Source: Fusobacteriota bacterium
GTDB lineage: Bacteria; Fusobacteriota; Fusobacteriia; JAPLKR01
DNA: 47,534 nt
Direction: 5' to 3'
Assembly: GCA_026387965.1 (NCBI GenBank)
Contig: JAPLKR010000025.1
Span: 1 to 47,534 of the forward strand
Positions 33,571-41,392 of this stretch are shown here, one piece after another (position 1 is the first letter of the stretch; the number at the start of each line of letters is the position of its first letter). The notes beneath the pieces were generated by a model. The model did no database searches, had not been told where the DNA came from, and was given only the letters and a program-made list of their open reading frames with translations. Both the position numbers and the translations under genes were made by a program.

Positions 33571-35013
33571 TTATTTCCAGCTCGGAGGGTGATATCCTGC
33601 TGGAACACTCTCTTTTTCCCAATAGGCTTTGGTTAATGAATAGTGAACCGGGGACCCAAAATATTCTAAAAATCCATGGCCAGAGTGCCCTGAAAGCATA
33701 TAATCGGGAAGTACACTCATATCGAGTGTAACACCTTCTATCTCTGATTTTGAAAATTTACCAAAACTTTGAAGCCACATAGCTGTTTGAGCGAGTGAAA
33801 CCTTAACGATATAGCTCCCACCCTCTTTTTCACGCTTAATAAGTGCCGCTAACGTCCCAACTGCTGCAAGATAACCTGTAATATAGTCATTTGGGAAAGT
33901 TGGAAGCATTGCAGGTACCCCATTTTCACCTTGTTCGATATCAAGACCTGTTGCCGTTTGAGCTAACTGCTCCCATCCTGGAAAATATTTCCACGGTCCA
34001 TGATGACCATAACAGTTGATAGAAATATAGATTATCCCTTTTCCTTGCTTTGAGAGACGATTTGCAATATCTTGAGCGCCAAACCCATATTTATCAAATG
34101 TTTTTGGTCTAAAACTCTCTGAAAAAATATCTGCCCCCTCCTCTATGAGTTTCCACATAGTGTTTTTACCCCGCTCATCTCTCAGATCGATCATTGTATT
34201 TCTCTTCCCTTGGCTTGTATCCATAAGAAAGGGAAGTATATAAGGAACATGGGGAGGGTTAATTCTCATAACATTTGCGCCTTGCTCAGCAAGCATCATC
34301 CCGCAGGTTGGTCCAGCAAGTACATGGGTTAGATCAAGCATCTTAACACCACTTAAGGGTCGAAGTTCCCCCTCTTCTTGCGCAGTAAAAGGCTGTGGAT
34401 TCCCATCTGCAATTTTCTCAATTTCTATAGGCATTAATAGGCCATCTTTCATGTGTGTTTCTTGAAGCACTTTGCCCTGTTCTGTTTTATCCCACTCCTC
34501 ACGGGTTCGACATACCACACAACACAGATGTGCATTTTGCACTGTTTTTTCAAGTTCAAAAGCGTCCCACTCTTTTACTGCATGTGCAATATCCTCATGG
34601 TTGTCTGCACATTGTAAAATTTTCAAAAGTCCTCTTCGGAGCTTTGGAAATCCCCCATTAATAAAGACCCATTTCCCCCCTTTAGCTTCATAAAGTCCCA
34701 CACATGGGTACTCTATATCAGGAAAGGGAATTTCATACCCATTATTTCTCATAAAGGCGCATCTCAGCGTTGAAAGTGCCGCAACATTAAGATCAATCTC
34801 AATCGTTTGCTGATGCTTTTCTCCACTGCGAATATCATATATTTTTGAAATAAGGGCTGCCATTGCAGAGAGTGCGGTCGCTGAAGCCTCTCCAATATGC
34901 CACGGTGACGGAGATACTGGCTCGCATCCAGTGATTTTAATCTCAACTCCCTCTGTGCTTAACCCTAAGTGTTTCAGAAGATGATCGTAATGCCTTTGCA
35001 TAACTTCATTCAT
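33571..35013 (-). CDS. family III (CaiB/BaiF-type) CoA-transferase with ~220-aa N-terminal extension
   Basis: The canonical N-terminal fingerprint GVKMLDLTHVLAGPTCGMMLAEQGANVMRINPP starts only at residue ~221. The catalytic-Asp region is PNDYITGYLAAVGTLAAL. 480 aa. Confidence 0.7.
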   Translation of the reverse strand: MNEVMQRHYDHLLKHLGLSTEGVEIKITGCEPVSPSPWHIGEASATALSAMAALISKIYDIRSGEKHQQTIEIDLNVAALSTLRCAFMRNNGYEIPFPDIEYPCVGLYEAKGGKWVFINGGFPKLRRGLLKILQCADNHEDIAHAVKEWDAFELEKTVQNAHLCCVVCRTREEWDKTEQGKVLQETHMKDGLLMPIEIEKIADGNPQPFTAQEEGELRPLSGVKMLDLTHVLAGPTCGMMLAEQGANVMRINPPHVPYILPFLMDTSQGKRNTMIDLRDERGKNTMWKLIEEGADIFSESFRPKTFDKYGFGAQDIANRLSKQGKGIIYISINCYGHHGPWKYFPGWEQLAQTATGLDIEQGENGVPAMLPTFPNDYITGYLAAVGTLAALIKREKEGGSYIVKVSLAQTAMWLQSFGKFSKSEIEGVTLDMSVLPDYMLSGHSGHGFLEYFGSPVHYSLTKAYWEKESVPAGYHPPSWK

Positions 35014-35082: not shown

Positions 35083-36160
35083 TTAGTAATTTAATTTAGC
35101 CAGTGCATCCACATTAATGGGGATATCATAGTCAATGTTTGAAAAACCAAATCCATTAAGTTCTAAGAACTCTTGCATAAACCCTTCGATATCTGAACAG
35201 CTATGTAGGTTTTCGTTTGATACTTTAGACATTAACGCTTCCACTTCTGCTTGCACAGCTGGAACCATCTCAAGATTATCCCCTCTTACTCGTCCTTTAG
35301 CATCTACCACACGCTTATCACCATACACCATATCTACAACCAATCTTTCGATTTGTCCGATACAATCTTCGTGAATTTTGTTCTCTTTCATTACTTTATA
35401 CAAAATACTGCAATAGATTGGGAATAGTGGAATATAAGCGCTTGCTTTTGTTACGAGCGCTTTACACACTGAAACAAAACCTTCTCCATCTACTTTTTTC
35501 ATTAAATCATTAATTTCAAATGCTTTTTTTTCTAAATCTCTTTTTGCTGCACCAATTGTTCCACCTTCATAGATTGGATACATAGCTTTTGGTCCTTCAT
35601 AAGAGTAAGCTGTTGTAATACACCCTTCAGCTAGAACACCTGCTTCTAGAAGCATTTTCATCCAAAGCTTCCAATCTTCTCCACCCATAACTTTTACAGT
35701 ATTGAAGATATCTTCCTCAGTGGCTTTTTCCATTTTTCCAGCAACGATTGTCCCAGTTGTAAGGTCGATAGTATTTGCTTCAATAGCGCCATCGATGCTT
35801 TTAAGAGCTGACATATATGTTTTTCCATCAATTGGGTCTGTTCTTCTACCTGAAGCAAGTGAATATACCACTAAATCCACTTTACCACCAAACACCTCTT
35901 TGATGTAGTCAATAACAGCTTTTTTCATTTCCATTCCAAAAGCATCCCCTACGAAGTTTTTAGCCAGTAATCCTTTTTTTTCTGCAAACTCTTTTACCCA
36001 AATGTTATTCCACCATCCAGCCGTTCCAACTCTTTTATCAGAAACACCTAGTTCAAAAGAGATTCCAATCGTATCCGCTCCACATCCAAATGCTGAAACA
36101 ATACGCGTTGCGGTTTTTTGATACTGCACCTTTAAATTCTGGTTTAATAATCATTTCCAT
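35083..36160 (-). pseudogene. trans-2-enoyl-CoA reductase (Ter/FabV family), apparently disrupted
   Basis: The long frame (GTG 36129) matches Ter/FabV from ..RIVSAFGCGADTIGISFE.. through VMGGEDW, YSYEGP, KALVTKASAYIP to the C-terminus. The SD-preceded ATG at 36160 encodes MEMIIKPEFKG (FabV-like N-terminus) in a different frame and stops after 35 codons. The frames meet at an A6 run (36113-36118). Confidence 0.7.
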
Positions 36161-36161
36161 T

Positions 36162-36533
36162 TTACAAAATCTCCTGATTTTCTGATTTGGGGGGTATTCC
36201 TGTTGCTAGCCCTCTCGCTAATACTGCATTGTTTTGATTCTTGCACTCAATTTTAATTTTAGCGAGTTTAAATACTCTTTTTTCTTGAATTTCTGCGATT
36301 TCAACCCTTAACGTCAATACATCATTTACGTGAACTTGAGAAAAATACTCTGTTTCTTGTTCTCTGTATATTGCACCATCACCGAGTAACTTTCCAATTG
36401 CTGATGAGACCATCCCTTGCACAAAAAATGCGGTTATTACGCTTGGAATCGCTTCATTTTCGATATTTAATAGAGTTTTAACTTGATTTATATCGCTTGC
36501 TTTGATTTCTAATTCTAACATAAAATTATTCAT
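36162..36533 (-). CDS. MaoC-like hot-dog protein 4 (hydratase motif absent)
   Basis: 123 aa. No D-x-N-P-x-H motif. C-terminal half is paralogous to protein 2 (KIKIECKNQNNAVLARGLATGIPP versus KIKIECYNQDEELVATGTATVIPP). Confidence 0.65.
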   Translation of the reverse strand: MNNFMLELEIKASDINQVKTLLNIENEAIPSVITAFFVQGMVSSAIGKLLGDGAIYREQETEYFSQVHVNDVLTLRVEIAEIQEKRVFKLAKIKIECKNQNNAVLARGLATGIPPKSENQEIL

Positions 36534-36546
36534 ACATTCTCCTAAA

Positions 36547-36942
36547 CTATGTCAATTTTGATAAAATTTCAACATCACATTTCCAAATCATAAGTTGCTG
36601 ACCCGATGCATTGAAACATCTACCAATAAAGTTTATATTATTTCCCTCGAATGCTAAAACTTCAATTTTTGAAGTAAATTTTTCATTCATTTTTAGAGGT
36701 ACTTTGAAAATTGTTGACTCTTTACATAGTTTAAAATTTTGCTTAATAATTCTTTGAAGATCACTGGTTATAGTTGCCACAATAAGCATACCATGAACTA
36801 TTTTATCCTCTATCTTGTCACCTTTACTTGCATCTACAAGATGAATAGAATTAAAATCTGTACTCAATTTTGCATATGTTTCCACATCACTTTGACTAAT
36901 CATATGTTCGAATTCAAAAATTTTTCCTACCTTCATTTTCAC
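36547..36942 (-). CDS. MaoC-like hot-dog protein 3 (Asp/His of hydratase motif retained)
   Basis: 131 aa. YAKLSTDFNSIHL with downstream VHGML. Confidence 0.65.
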   Translation of the reverse strand: MKMKVGKIFEFEHMISQSDVETYAKLSTDFNSIHLVDASKGDKIEDKIVHGMLIVATITSDLQRIIKQNFKLCKESTIFKVPLKMNEKFTSKIEVLAFEGNNINFIGRCFNASGQQLMIWKCDVEILSKLT

Positions 36943-36947
36943 CTCAC

Positions 36948-37364
36948 TTATTCAATGGTTGGGGGTATCACAGTAGCTGTTCCTGTAGCCACCAACTCTT
37001 CATCTTGATTATAACATTCTATTTTGATTTTTGAAATAATAAAATTCTTTTTCTCAATAATTTTTTCAACGATGGCTTTCACAATAACCGTATCATTTGC
37101 AAAAACATTCTTTAAAAATTGTGTCTCTTGCTCAAGATAAATTGATCCAAAACCCGGCATTTTTGCGCCTAGCGTTGCAGAAATAAGCCCCTGAATATAA
37201 ATATTTTGAACAAGTTTTTTTGTAAAACCAGCTTCTTTCCAGTAGAGTTCATTGGTACATAGAGGGTTTCTATCTCCTGTAATACTTTCAAAATTATACA
37301 CATCACCATCCGTTATTGTTCTAATATAGTAAGCGGTTTGTCCAATTTTAAGATTAGTTTTCAT
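36948..37364 (-). CDS. MaoC-like hot-dog protein 2 (catalytic His replaced by Cys)
   Basis: 138 aa. FESITGDRNPLCTN where canonical enzymes have ..NP[LIV]H. Overlaps protein 1 by 11 nt. AGGAG RBS. Confidence 0.65.
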   Translation of the reverse strand: MKTNLKIGQTAYYIRTITDGDVYNFESITGDRNPLCTNELYWKEAGFTKKLVQNIYIQGLISATLGAKMPGFGSIYLEQETQFLKNVFANDTVIVKAIVEKIIEKKNFIISKIKIECYNQDEELVATGTATVIPPTIE

Positions 37365-37818
37365 ACAATGCTCCTTCGCCTACTAAATTTGGTATCAGCG
37401 TTTCAACGCTCCCCTCTGTAACAATCACACCCTCTTGATTAACACATGTGGTGTTTAACGTTATTTTAAGTCCCTCTATTTTAATAATTTCAAGATTAAC
37501 TGTAATACTATCTCCTACAAATACAGGCTTTTTAAATTGTATATGTTGTTTTGTCACAATGGTTCCAAGCCCAGGAAGTTTTTGAGTAATAGCCCCTGAA
37601 ATATACCCTGCACAAATCATCCCATGCATAACACGATGCTTAAACATCCCATCCTTTGAATGCTCTTCATCAATATGTGCTGGATTAAAATCACCCGTAA
37701 TTCCAGCAAATAAATATATGTCAAATGTTTCTACTGTTTTAGTAAACATTCCTTTATCTCCAACCTTTAACTCTTTTGGTACGCTATCTCTAAGTATCTG
37801 TCTAATATCAAACATCAT
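37354..37818 (-). CDS. MaoC-like (R)-specific enoyl-CoA hydratase 1 (canonical motif)
   Basis: 154 aa. FAGITGDFNPAHIDEEHS plus VMHGM, a full hydratase-2 motif. Confidence 0.75.
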   Translation of the reverse strand: MMFDIRQILRDSVPKELKVGDKGMFTKTVETFDIYLFAGITGDFNPAHIDEEHSKDGMFKHRVMHGMICAGYISGAITQKLPGLGTIVTKQHIQFKKPVFVGDSITVNLEIIKIEGLKITLNTTCVNQEGVIVTEGSVETLIPNLVGEGALYEN

Positions 37819-37827
37819 ATTTCCCCC

Positions 37828-38613
37828 TTATCTCATGTTCCAACCGTGCGATACGATTAAATCTTGTCCTGAATAAGCATTAGATTTTGCGCTAGCAAAA
37901 AACAAAACTGCCTCCGCTACTTCTTCAACTGTTGTAAATTCTCCATCGATGGTGTTTTGAGTCATAGATCTAAGAACTTCCGCTTCTGATATATTCTCAA
38001 GCTTAGCTCTCTCAGGAATTTGTTTTTCGACAAGTGGTGTTAATACAAATCCTGGTGCTACTAGATTACATGAAATATTATGAGGACCGCCTTCAATAGC
38101 TATCGTTCTTGTTAGCCCAACCACTGCATGTTTTCCTGCAACATAAGCTGCTTTATCTGTTGAAGCCAGAAATGAGTGAACTGATCCAATATTTACAACC
38201 CGCCCAAAACTATTTTTTTTCATGATTTTAAAACATTCACGTGACATATAAAAACTACCATGTAAATTGATATTTAAAAGTGAATGCCACTTTTCGGAAG
38301 TAAAATCTTCAAACTTCTCAATAATTTGAATACCTGCATTATTTACTAAAATATCTATTTGTCCATGTTCTTTTTCCATTTGAGTGATAAACGCAATAAC
38401 CTCTTGCTCGTTTGAAATGTCAAGTTTGTGTCCAATAACTTCTACACCACACTCAAGAGAGATATCCTTAGCGGCTTGTACGCATATTTCCTCTGTTGGC
38501 AGACCAACCACTATTACTTTACCTCCTGCATTAGCAAGTGCAACGGCAATTCCTTTACCAATTCCTGAAGTTCCACCTGTTACAATTGCAACTTTTCCTG
38601 TTACTGTCATCAT
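37828..38613 (-). CDS. SDR, 3-hydroxybutyrate dehydrogenase-like
   Basis: GKVAIVTGGTSGIGKG, NNAGIQ, S..x..AYVAGKHAVVGLTR, PGFVLTPLVEKQI, C-terminal HGWNMR. These parallel D-beta-hydroxybutyrate dehydrogenases as recalled. ATG 38613 (AAGGAG 10 nt upstream) is preferred over 38640. Confidence 0.72.
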   Translation of the reverse strand: MMTVTGKVAIVTGGTSGIGKGIAVALANAGGKVIVVGLPTEEICVQAAKDISLECGVEVIGHKLDISNEQEVIAFITQMEKEHGQIDILVNNAGIQIIEKFEDFTSEKWHSLLNINLHGSFYMSRECFKIMKKNSFGRVVNIGSVHSFLASTDKAAYVAGKHAVVGLTRTIAIEGGPHNISCNLVAPGFVLTPLVEKQIPERAKLENISEAEVLRSMTQNTIDGEFTTVEEVAEAVLFFASAKSNAYSGQDLIVSHGWNMR

Positions 38614-38636
38614 TTTGCATGCTCTCCTTAACTTTT

Positions 38637-40208
38637 TCATAGGGTAAGTCCCATTTTTTCTATCTTAAACAATCTAGAATCCATAAGTTTTAGCTCTTTA
38701 GAAATATTGGGTTTAAAACTCATATGTGCTAAAATATCACGTTCTAAATCTACGCCTGGAGCTATTTCTATAAGCGTAAATCCTTCGTTCGTAATTTTAA
38801 AAACCGCTCTCTCCGTAACGTAGTGAACAATTTGTCCTTTTTCTCTCGCATATTCACCACTAAAAGTAATCTGCTCTACAAAATCAATAAGCTTCGGAAC
38901 ATTTCCATCCTTAATTATCTTAAACGCACCATTACCTGTTTCAAACTGCATCTTTCCAGCCATAAATGTTCCACAAAATACTACATTGTGCGTATTTTGT
39001 GAAATATCAATAAATCCACCGCATCCTGCAATTTTCGGTCCAAATTTAGATACATTTACATTTCCAAAGATATCACACTCTGCCATACCTAGAAAAGTAA
39101 TATCAAGTCCACCACCATCATAAAAATCAAACTGGTATGCATGGTCTAAAATGGCTTGTGGTGCACGTAGTGCTCCAAAACTCAACCCCCCGGCCGCGAT
39201 TCCACCTATTCCACCTGGCTCAACCGTTGGCGTGAAATTATCCGATATCCCCTCTTCTTCAATAACTTGCGCCACAACTTCTGGGAGGCCTATTCCAAAG
39301 TTTAATACTTTCATCTCTTTTTGTAAAAACATCGCAGCACGTCTTGCAATAATTTTTCTTTCATTTAGAGGATAAGGAAAAAAATCATCTTTTTCAATAG
39401 GCTTTGAACTAATATATTCTGGATTAAAATCCTCTGCAAATGTTTGCATGTGATTCTTCATATCTTCTACTTCTACAACAAAATCAACGCATATCGATGG
39501 GATAACAACACTTTTTGGATCGAGTGTTCCATTAGGAACAATTTTCTCAACTTGTACAATCACTTTCCCTCCTGAATTTCTTGCAGCCATCGCCATAGGA
39601 AGATTTTCTATTTTTAACGCTTCTTTTTCCATACTGATATTTCCATATTCATCTGCATAAGTCCCTCGAAGTATCACAAAATCAAATCGCCCCGTTTTAT
39701 AAAGAAGAAAGTCCTGTCCATCTATTTGTGTTTTTTTCACTAAATCTTGTTGAGTTTTCGAATTAAGTTTCCCCCCTTCTAGATCTGGATCTACAAACGT
39801 GTGCATCCCTACTTTACTAATAGCGTAGCCCTTTTTTCCCGCAATAGTTCTAAGAAGTTGATTAAGTATCCCTTGTGGAAAATTGTATGCTTCAATTTTA
39901 TTTTCTGCAACCAATGCTTGAAGCCTTGGCGAAAGGCCATAATGTGCGCCAATTGTTCTTTTCAGTAACCCTTCATAGGCAAAACGTGAAAGTCCTTTTT
40001 CTGCACCATTCCCTTGCCCTGCAACAAAAAACAGGGATAAATCTCTGGGGCTCTTAGTTTCTAAAAACCGTTTTTCAATAGCTTTATAAATTTCTTCTGC
40101 AACCGCTATTCCCACGAACCCACCAATACCCACTCTAGCACCATCAAATATCATCTCTGCAGCTTCAACTGCTGTAATTTTTTTCACTAATATTATACTC
40201 CTATACAA
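38637..40208 (-). CDS. family I acyl-CoA:acetate/3-ketoacid CoA-transferase (fused alpha-beta, YdiF type)
   Basis: 523 aa. Catalytic-Glu block TVEPGGIGG and C-terminus EIAPGVDLERDILAHMSFKPNISKELKLMDSRLF match E. coli YdiF as recalled. The start is TTG 40208 or GTG 40187. Confidence 0.8.
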   Translation of the reverse strand: MYRSIILVKKITAVEAAEMIFDGARVGIGGFVGIAVAEEIYKAIEKRFLETKSPRDLSLFFVAGQGNGAEKGLSRFAYEGLLKRTIGAHYGLSPRLQALVAENKIEAYNFPQGILNQLLRTIAGKKGYAISKVGMHTFVDPDLEGGKLNSKTQQDLVKKTQIDGQDFLLYKTGRFDFVILRGTYADEYGNISMEKEALKIENLPMAMAARNSGGKVIVQVEKIVPNGTLDPKSVVIPSICVDFVVEVEDMKNHMQTFAEDFNPEYISSKPIEKDDFFPYPLNERKIIARRAAMFLQKEMKVLNFGIGLPEVVAQVIEEEGISDNFTPTVEPGGIGGIAAGGLSFGALRAPQAILDHAYQFDFYDGGGLDITFLGMAECDIFGNVNVSKFGPKIAGCGGFIDISQNTHNVVFCGTFMAGKMQFETGNGAFKIIKDGNVPKLIDFVEQITFSGEYAREKGQIVHYVTERAVFKITNEGFTLIEIAPGVDLERDILAHMSFKPNISKELKLMDSRLFKIEKMGLTL

Positions 40209-40267: not shown

Positions 40268-41392
40268 TTACAATTTGTTTTTTGTCCCACTTTCTAAAAA
40301 CTTTAAAACTTTTTTATACAGTGTGTCAGAATTTTTTATCAACTTCGTATAGAACATATCAATCCCAGCATAATGACTGATTCCAACCATAATGCAAGAT
40401 ATTAATAGCTTCTCTTCGATACTGTAAGATGTAGTCTCAAGCACCCTCATAAAGAGCCTTTTTATCCTATCATATCTTTCACTAAAAGTTTTGAAATGAA
40501 ATTCTGCATCCCTAATAATTCTATATTGTTCCGGGGTGATCGAAAAATAAGACTGTATCAAATACAACATTTTCAGTGTATTGGTAAATTTATCTTCATA
40601 TTTGAACGTATTCTCATATACAATTTCTTCAATTTGAGAATCAAATAATTCTAAAATAACTTTCAGAACTTCCTCTTTATTTTGAAAACAGTGATAAAAT
40701 GACCCTGTACTATACCCAAGTTCTTTCATAATCACTTCGATTTTAACATTAAAATATCCCATTTTTCCAAAAAGTTCTGTGGCCTTTCTCACTATTTGCA
40801 TTTTTTTTGAAAGTGTTAAGGGAGTTTTTAGAAAACAGTCACTGGCTTCAATAATTTTATTTAAATCACATTGGCTTTTTTCATTAAATCCTTCAAGAAT
40901 AAACCGTACCAAGAACTCACAATCTAGTTTTTCATTTAATCTAAAATATGCAATAGAGGTATAACGAATAGCTGCCATAACAATAACATATTGGTACTCT
41001 GAAATTTCGCATTTATATACTTTTTTCAAAGTTTTAATATAAATATCACGAATAGCCAGTTCATATTCAATAAATGTATACTGGGCTTCTCTAAATAATC
41101 GTACCAAATTGTATTCGTTTTCAATAACTTCATAATTTAATTCTATAAATTTTTTCAACCGATGTTCAACATTAGCACCATCTATAACTTCAAATTTTAT
41201 TTTATGTTTATCAAGAAGACTGTTTACCAGAGCTGAAAAAATATCCCGCTTACTTGAAAAATAGTTATAAAATACACCATTTGATACTTTTGCATGTGAT
41301 GTGATTTGTAAGACCGAAACTTCATCATATGGTAGAGTTGAAAAAATTTCAATTGCTGATCTTATCAGTTTATTTTCAATATTATCTTTCAT
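40268..41392 (-). CDS. TetR-family regulator with two tandem TetR modules
   Basis: 374 aa. HTH 1 at ~9-55 (IRSAIEIFSTLPYDEVSVLQITSHAKVSNGVFYNYFSSKRDIF). HTH 2 at ~198-245 (IVRKATELFGKMGYFNVKIEVIMKELGYSTGSFYHCFQNKEEVL). Confidence 0.8.
   Translation of the reverse strand: MKDNIENKLIRSAIEIFSTLPYDEVSVLQITSHAKVSNGVFYNYFSSKRDIFSALVNSLLDKHKIKFEVIDGANVEHRLKKFIELNYEVIENEYNLVRLFREAQYTFIEYELAIRDIYIKTLKKVYKCEISEYQYVIVMAAIRYTSIAYFRLNEKLDCEFLVRFILEGFNEKSQCDLNKIIEASDCFLKTPLTLSKKMQIVRKATELFGKMGYFNVKIEVIMKELGYSTGSFYHCFQNKEEVLKVILELFDSQIEEIVYENTFKYEDKFTNTLKMLYLIQSYFSITPEQYRIIRDAEFHFKTFSERYDRIKRLFMRVLETTSYSIEEKLLISCIMVGISHYAGIDMFYTKLIKNSDTLYKKVLKFLESGTKNKL

Follow-up and report, generated by a model that had tools for sequence, protein, structure and literature searches.

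Four tandem hot-dog genes upstream of a trans-2-enoyl-CoA reductase gene may encode two heteromeric (R)-specific dehydratases

On a contig of a Fusobacteriota bacterium (positions 1-47,534, called the window here), four short genes for hot-dog proteins of the MaoC/PhaJ type follow one another on the minus strand, as do all genes of their operon, and lead directly into a gene for a trans-2-enoyl-CoA reductase (TER). We propose, with a probability of about 0.6, that the products of these four genes assemble into two heteromeric (R)-specific 3-hydroxyacyl-CoA dehydratases/enoyl-CoA hydratases, one made of the first and second proteins (P1+P2) and the other of the third and fourth (P3+P4). P1 is a predicted catalytic subunit of a PhaJ-type (R)-hydratase (37354..37818, 154 amino acids (aa)); P2 is its putative non-catalytic hot-dog partner (36948..37364, 138 aa); P3 is a divergent candidate catalytic subunit (36547..36942, 131 aa) and P4 a minimal, putatively non-catalytic hot-dog protein (36162..36533, 123 aa). 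Each pair would be built like a dimer of the hydratase PhaJ with one working active site, to which the non-catalytic subunit would contribute the acyl pocket (central helix, PGxGxIY loop and beta-sheet), and the reciprocal site of each pair would be dead on both sides. The ancestral unit would have been two genes directly upstream of TER, and in the lineage of the window the whole pair would be present a second time, in strongly diverged form. Formation of the heterodimers, the pairing of neighbours, the substrates and the direction of flux are what we infer from these genes and their relatives.

Catalytic residues and pocket loops of the four proteins

The starting point was an earlier note, which had described four consecutive MaoC hot-dog genes in which intact and destroyed catalytic motifs alternate. 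All four open reading frames are indeed present, as is every peptide that the note quoted, and its spacings (an 11-nt overlap, with 5-13 nt elsewhere) agree with our measurements: P1 and P2 overlap by 11 nt, P2 and P3 are separated by 5 nt and P3 and P4 by 13 nt, and a single nucleotide lies between the stop of P4 and the start of TER. Every junction between the four genes is out of frame, and a scan of the coding strand for terminator-like sites gave none inside them. Membership of the MaoC family was defined by Pfam PF01575 (MaoC_dehydratas; gathering cutoff 27 bits), which P1 (71.4 bits), P2 (38.3 bits) and P3 (31.9 bits) exceed. P4 gave no PF01575 match and only a sub-threshold one to FAS1_DH_region (19.6 bits, cutoff 22); it was assigned to the hot-dog/MaoC family by phylogeny and fold instead.

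We numbered residues after PhaJ of Aeromonas caviae, in an alignment with PhaJ, PhaJ1, HTD2 and canonical relatives. In A. caviae PhaJ, Asp31 and His36 are catalytic, and Leu65 and Val130 set the chain length of the substrate (PMC4823750). At positions 31/36/53/54 both P1 and P3 read D/H/H/G, P3 retaining TDFNSIH and VHG, and these two proteins therefore have what defines a PhaJ-type catalytic subunit, namely Asp31, His36 and a His-Gly at the N-terminus of the central helix. P2 and P4 lack this set. P2 reads D/C/Q/N (GDRNPLC), and the whole protein is without histidine, so that the replacement of the catalytic His by Cys and the loss of HG that had been noticed before are borne out, HG having become QN. 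P4 reads I/I/T/A and its active-site housing is shorter by 12 residues, in keeping with the claim that it has no motif at all; the claim that P3 keeps Asp and His holds, and its HG is intact. The alternation of D-H-H-G (P1, P3) with D-C-QN (P2) and I-I-TA (P4) thus holds. Catalytic residues at shifted positions in P2 or P4, the finding that the earlier note had named as fatal to its proposal, were searched for in the PhaJ alignment and ruled out: P2 has no His to offer, and the one His of P4 (H68) differs in the P4 ortholog. The suspected paralogy of P2 and P4 is also upheld, by 41% identity over 87 aa and a common 2-residue insertion.

The loop that lines the acyl pocket shows the opposite pattern. 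It is changed in P1 (GTIVTKQ where GxIYLGQ is expected) and destroyed in P3 (IIKQNFKLCKE), and is retained in P2 (PGFGSIYLEQ) and in P4 (GDGAIYREQ). Related pairs on metagenome contigs, described below, allow the comparison to be widened. Among the catalytic proteins (P1, P3 and those of contigs L016 and L018) all are D-H-H-G, with Tyr76 replaced by V/V/I/L and Gly78 by K/K/R/K, and the PGxG loop is gone entirely in P3 and the L018 protein. Among the non-catalytic ones (P2, P4 and those of L013, L016 and L018) position 36 is C/I/C/T/S and positions 53-54 are QN/TA/TS/PN/QN, and G71, G73, Y76 and Q79 of the pocket loop are retained in all five. Since the replacement of the His varies from member to member, nothing appears to have taken over its role. 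Across a MaoC dimer, the housing of each protomer lies opposite the pocket (bun and central helix) of its partner; in ChsH1-ChsH2, ChsH1 supplies the housing and ChsH2 the pocket of the single site (PMC11321319). The complementary decay seen here agrees with a single active site in each heterodimer; neither type of subunit would make a complete site as a homodimer, and a heterodimer would have exactly one.

The two pairs probably differ in the chain length that they accept. At positions 65 and 130, P2 has Leu and Val like PhaJ, and P4 and its ortholog have Ile (Val) and Gly, which suggests that P3+P4 would take longer or bulkier acyl chains than P1+P2.

Structure prediction with AlphaFold2 gave confident hot-dog folds for the two divergent proteins. 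The P3 model (predicted local distance difference test score, pLDDT, 89) superposes on PhaJ (1iq6) with a template modelling (TM) score of 0.87 and a root-mean-square deviation of 2.2 Å, and the P4 model (pLDDT 92) with a TM score of 0.77. In the latter, the three-helix housing is cut to one helix (H12-21) and a long central helix (30-50) is kept. P2 aligns without gaps across the central helix of PhaJ.

It is unlikely, in our judgement, that the four proteins act as independent homodimers, with P1 and perhaps P3 as ordinary PhaJ-type hydratases and P2 and P4 in another role, such as acyl-CoA binding or carriage, thioester hydrolysis or regulation. P1 is near-canonical for a PhaJ, and the minimal hot-dog of P4 also resembles thioesterases of the YbgC type, at lower TM scores (0.47-0.61), and gives weak Pfam matches to 4HBT and FabA. 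However, the members of the non-catalytic clade have no other acidic or nucleophilic residue in common, the position of the lost His varies among them, and what they do conserve is the canonical MaoC pocket. The catalytic subunits, for their part, are without their own Y76 and G78, which by the geometry of the dimer (PMC11321319) would cripple a homodimer. The order of catalytic gene, non-catalytic gene and TER moreover recurs in three lineages, and a thioesterase would be unneeded in an operon that already holds two CoA-transferases.

Relatives, gene order and ancestry of the pairs

Relatives of the module were rare. A word-indexed search with P4 returned one ortholog (P0002, 58-60% identity) on the 1.5-kb metagenome contig L013, where the C-terminus of a P3 ortholog, the P4 ortholog and an intact TER gene follow one another; with P3 it gave no ortholog, and with P2 only two canonical MaoCs. 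An HMMER search of 1.84 billion representatives with a P4 profile yielded 88 matches, the best two being P0008 and P0007. P0008, a protein of 137 aa that has lost the dyad, occurs on contigs L018-L023. The two longest, L018 and L019, carry in order a CoA-transferase, a short-chain dehydrogenase/reductase (SDR), an acetoacetate-decarboxylase-family protein, a catalytic MaoC of 134 aa with the dyad intact, P0008 and TER, and the shorter contigs carry parts of this order; L018:1339-6571 is a one-pair version of the operon from a metagenome, in which acetoacetate and 3-hydroxybutyrate are a clear theme. P0007, a protein of 535 aa, joins a non-catalytic hot-dog in frame to a complete TER, and the gene before it encodes a catalytic MaoC of 143 aa. 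The fusion (L016:10001-11608, L017:3335-4942 and L024:7029-8636) was found in three independent assemblies, two from Logan and one the GenBank metagenome-assembled genome (MAG) 'Proteobacteria bacterium AWTP1-29' (RXKA01000136.1), with one amino acid different. At least three lineages therefore share the order catalytic gene, non-catalytic gene, TER; one is that of the window and two are unrelated metagenomic ones.

Between the window and L018, identity is 69% for the CoA-transferase, 63% for the SDR and 75% for TER. P1 is 56% identical to the catalytic protein of L018 and 49% to that of L016, and P2 is 56% identical to the non-catalytic protein of L016 and 48% to that of L018. With 48-56% identity between lineages for the non-catalytic proteins against 49-56% for the catalytic ones, the non-catalytic subunits appear to evolve as slowly as the catalytic subunits.

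In a tree of 39 sequences (LG+C20), P2, P4, the L013 ortholog and the non-catalytic proteins of L016 and L018 form one clade (support 99/96), and P1, P3 and the catalytic proteins of L016 and L018 another (88/97). Insertions and deletions tell the same two groups apart: compared with canonical MaoCs, one and the same beta-hairpin is longer by a 2-residue insertion in every non-catalytic member and shorter by a 2-residue deletion in every catalytic one, including P3. These complementary changes may compensate each other at a contact that reaches across the dimer or toward TER. Each pair of the window thus holds one member per clade in the ancestral order, as would be expected if a whole pair had been duplicated or acquired, and in the maximum-likelihood tree P3 and P4 both attach nearest the L018 pair, with weak support. 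The earlier note had proposed two catalytic/non-catalytic pairs that arose by duplication of a pair. The clades, the gene order, the equal constraint on the two subunits and the complementary decay favour the pairs; as to their origin, acquisition of a second pair is possible as well, as approximately unbiased (AU) tests do not separate it from duplication in situ. The features that mark the heteromeric MaoC functional class, namely adjacent genes with and without the dyad, purifying selection and co-inheritance, were all found.

P3 and P4 have diverged much further than any other member (branch lengths 4.76 and 1.96+0.79), which raises the alternative that they are a decaying, redundant duplicate and that only P1-P2, or P1 alone, matters. 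Against the L013 orthologs, the ratio of nonsynonymous to synonymous substitution rates (dN/dS) is 0.21 for the C-terminus of P3 (71 codons) and 0.28 for P4, compared to 0.04 for TER, with dS of 1.3-1.9. Both P3 and P4 are thus under constraint, if a looser one than TER; their ratios are 5-7 times that of TER, and the adjoining TER is broken here, both as expected of decay. Yet both open reading frames are intact in two lineages at a dS of ~1.4-1.9, with dN/dS well below 1, and both proteins are predicted to fold at a pLDDT of ~90. The parts that a heterodimer would need are still there, namely Asp, His and His-Gly in P3 and the pocket loop in P4, and the Gly of P4 at the Val130 position is conserved in its ortholog. 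We consider decay of the second pair very unlikely.

That all four proteins form a single larger hetero-oligomer, possibly with TER, or that the pairs are crossed (P1+P4 and P3+P2), also seems quite improbable to us. The four genes are co-transcribed and tightly coupled, the fusion puts a hot-dog unit physically next to TER, and it is P4, not P2, that adjoins TER here. A single pair is enough in other lineages, however, and gene order and translational coupling favour pairing of nearest neighbours; the attachment of both P3 and P4 next to the L018 pair likewise suggests that they were inherited jointly, if with weak support.

The distribution of the module is patchy. It was not found in 60 relatives of the window's genome nor in any of the 190 genomes of its phylum, where only canonical MaoC homologs (≤44% identity to P2) were encountered, and these were single genes at the ten loci whose context was read; the cluster is therefore no trait of the phylum. 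Nor was it found in 80 relatives of the fusion-bearing MAG. A first scan of genome contigs gave nothing, and a second gave the fusion MAG and two canonical MaoCs. Among other candidates, L014 and L015, from a scan of metagenome contigs with the P4 profile, proved to be spurious or canonical loci, and P0011 and P0059, MaoC matches without the motif, are solitary genes in unrelated contexts and were placed outside the P2/P4-type family.

Comparison with known hydratases and a possible pathway

The closest relatives in sequence and fold are PhaJ of A. caviae (1IQ6) and PhaJ1 of Pseudomonas aeruginosa (5CPG), which P1 matches at E=1e-25 and a profile of the non-catalytic proteins at E=1e-18. The proteins share with PhaJ a single hot-dog of ~130-150 aa and a full-length central helix, and also bulky residues at the Leu65 position and, in P2, the Val at 130, which imply short-chain specificity. 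However, PhaJ is a homodimer with two active sites, whereas here the dyad is lost in each second gene and the pocket loop degraded in each first.

The mycobacterial (3R)-hydroxyacyl-ACP dehydratases HadAB, HadBC and HadBD offer a parallel in gene arrangement, with adjacent genes for a catalytic HadB and a non-catalytic HadA, HadC or HadD, each a single hot-dog subunit, and one site per heterodimer. Had structures are among the structural neighbours of the P3 and P4 models. The Had enzymes differ in acting on very long acyl-ACP substrates, with HadA opening the pocket, whereas CoA esters are the predicted substrates here and the helix retains its full length. Scores on the Had models stay far below the equivalog cutoffs (HadA NF040624, 180 bits; HadB NF010246, 203 bits; HadC NF010244, 221 bits), at 32.6 bits for P1 and 18 bits for P3 on HadB and 17.8 bits for P2 on HadA. 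When the non-catalytic profile was compared with the PDB, no Had chain appeared at E<0.01, and only catalytic structures of the PhaJ/HTD2 type were matched.

ChsH1-ChsH2, the steroid side-chain enoyl-CoA hydratase of Mycobacterium tuberculosis, and the double hot-dogs of MFE-2 hydratase 2 likewise combine one housing with the pocket of an inert partner into a single site (PMC11321319). ChsH2, however, accommodates a steroid by means of a central helix of 9 residues, an auxiliary domain and a DUF35 domain (PMC11321319), none of which is seen in P2 or P4: the helix of P2 is gap-free against PhaJ, that of P4 spans 30-50, and Pfam finds no extra domains. The relation in sequence between ChsH1-ChsH2 and P1-P4 is remote. 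Judged by sequence, the resemblance to HadAB and ChsH1-ChsH2 is functional only, with P1-P4 outside both families, and the pairs appear to be an independent, PhaJ-derived origin of the one-site architecture.

A downstream reductase of the TER/FabV family is also a feature of the TER pathways of the Treponema denticola and Euglena type. A limited search of the literature turned up no account of a hot-dog::TER fusion, nor of a natural TER operon that has its own catalytic/non-catalytic MaoC pair. To our knowledge, heteromeric MaoC dehydratases with an inert partner have so far been a hallmark of actinobacterial lipid and steroid metabolism, where the inert partner makes room for very large substrates. 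The pairs described here seem to occur in low-GC, anaerobe-like genomes and to be tied to TER in a ketone-body/3-hydroxybutyrate operon. If so, subfunctionalisation of a homodimer into a one-site heterodimer would be a recurrent solution rather than an actinobacterial peculiarity, and two diverged pairs in one operon would make a clean system for studying how the pocket donor controls substrate specificity. The natural dehydratase-reductase module, in its fused form too, might then be useful for reverse beta-oxidation and for butyrate or butanol engineering, in which PhaJ and TER have already been combined artificially.

An (R)-specific hydratase fits the logic of the operon. The 3-hydroxybutyrate dehydrogenase would interconvert acetoacetate and (R)-3-hydroxybutyrate, a CoA-transferase would turn the latter into (R)-3-hydroxybutyryl-CoA, the hot-dog pairs would dehydrate this to crotonyl-CoA, TER would reduce the enoyl-CoA, and a CoA-transferase would free the saturated acid (butyrate). 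The ketone-body theme is reinforced by the acetoacetate-decarboxylase-family gene in the L018 operon, and the MaoC(non)::TER fusion is evidence of the Rosetta-stone kind for a hot-dog unit that works in physical proximity to the reductase.

Because TER invariably follows the non-catalytic gene, one lineage has an in-frame fusion of the two and the hairpin insertions and deletions are complementary, we also entertain the tentative idea, which we hold to be possible but doubtful, that the non-catalytic subunit is an adaptor that docks the dehydratase on TER. The enoyl-CoA would then be handed over directly, pulling the unfavourable dehydration of (R)-3-hydroxyacyl-CoA forward, and a single reductase would, through duplication of the pair, be served by two exchangeable front ends whose pockets differ in chain length, with Val in one and Gly in the other at PhaJ position 130.

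Several observations weigh against two heteromeric dehydratases. P1 retains most of its own pocket loop (LPGLG) and might be active as a homodimer as well, and why a C4 substrate should require a partner that shapes the pocket is not obvious. All four genes together are known from this genome only, L013 confirming just the C-terminus of P3, P4 and TER; the P3 ortholog of L013, the only one, is without its N-terminal half and does not cover conservation of the Asp and His of P3. The placement of P3 depends on its very long branch, and the AU tests, which have no power here, reject neither P1 and P3 as sisters (p=0.38), nor P2 and P4 as sisters (p=0.32), nor P3 within the non-catalytic clade (p=0.27). 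Finally, TER is broken in this assembly, and the pathway may be decaying here.

The reductase gene and the rest of the operon

The TER gene (35083..36160) is identified as TER/FabV type by Pfam Enoyl_reductase (323.7 bits) and by the NCBIfam FabV subfamily model PRK13656 (447.8 bits, cutoff 403), and scores 392.2 bits on the FabV equivalog (cutoff 400); about 55 N-terminal positions of the Pfam profile are missing. An alignment of the DNA with the intact L013 ortholog revealed a frameshifting deletion of 119 nt, which removes ~40 codons including the nucleotide-binding loop GSSSGYG. The break lies just after an A-run (TCAAAAAACC) and is a deletion, not a one-base slip. Since the rest of the gene is so well conserved, the break must be very recent, a strain variant or an assembly artefact. 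A second, intact gene of the FabV/TER family, encoding 396 aa with 56% identity to the TER of the operon, stands alone on another contig of the same genome (G000:C50:19000-20190 (-)) and could serve fatty-acid synthesis or replace the broken copy.

The first gene of the operon (38637..40208) encodes a family I CoA-transferase of the YdiF/FadX-like kind (Pfam CoA_trans), which scores 412.8 bits on NCBIfam FadX, under the cutoff of 750. It is followed, directly upstream of P1, by the SDR gene (37828..38640), whose product is of the 3-hydroxybutyrate dehydrogenase type (NCBIfam PRK12429, 302.8 bits, cutoff 258). Downstream of TER, the last gene of the cluster (33571..35013) encodes a family III CoA-transferase (Pfam CoA_transf_3, 167.4 bits); the Pfam match begins at about residue 220 of 480, leaving a long N-terminal extension. 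Upstream of the operon, also on the minus strand, lies a gene for a double-module TetR regulator (40268..41392), in which Pfam TetR_N matches two stretches, so that two helix-turn-helix modules are found within a single chain of 374 aa.

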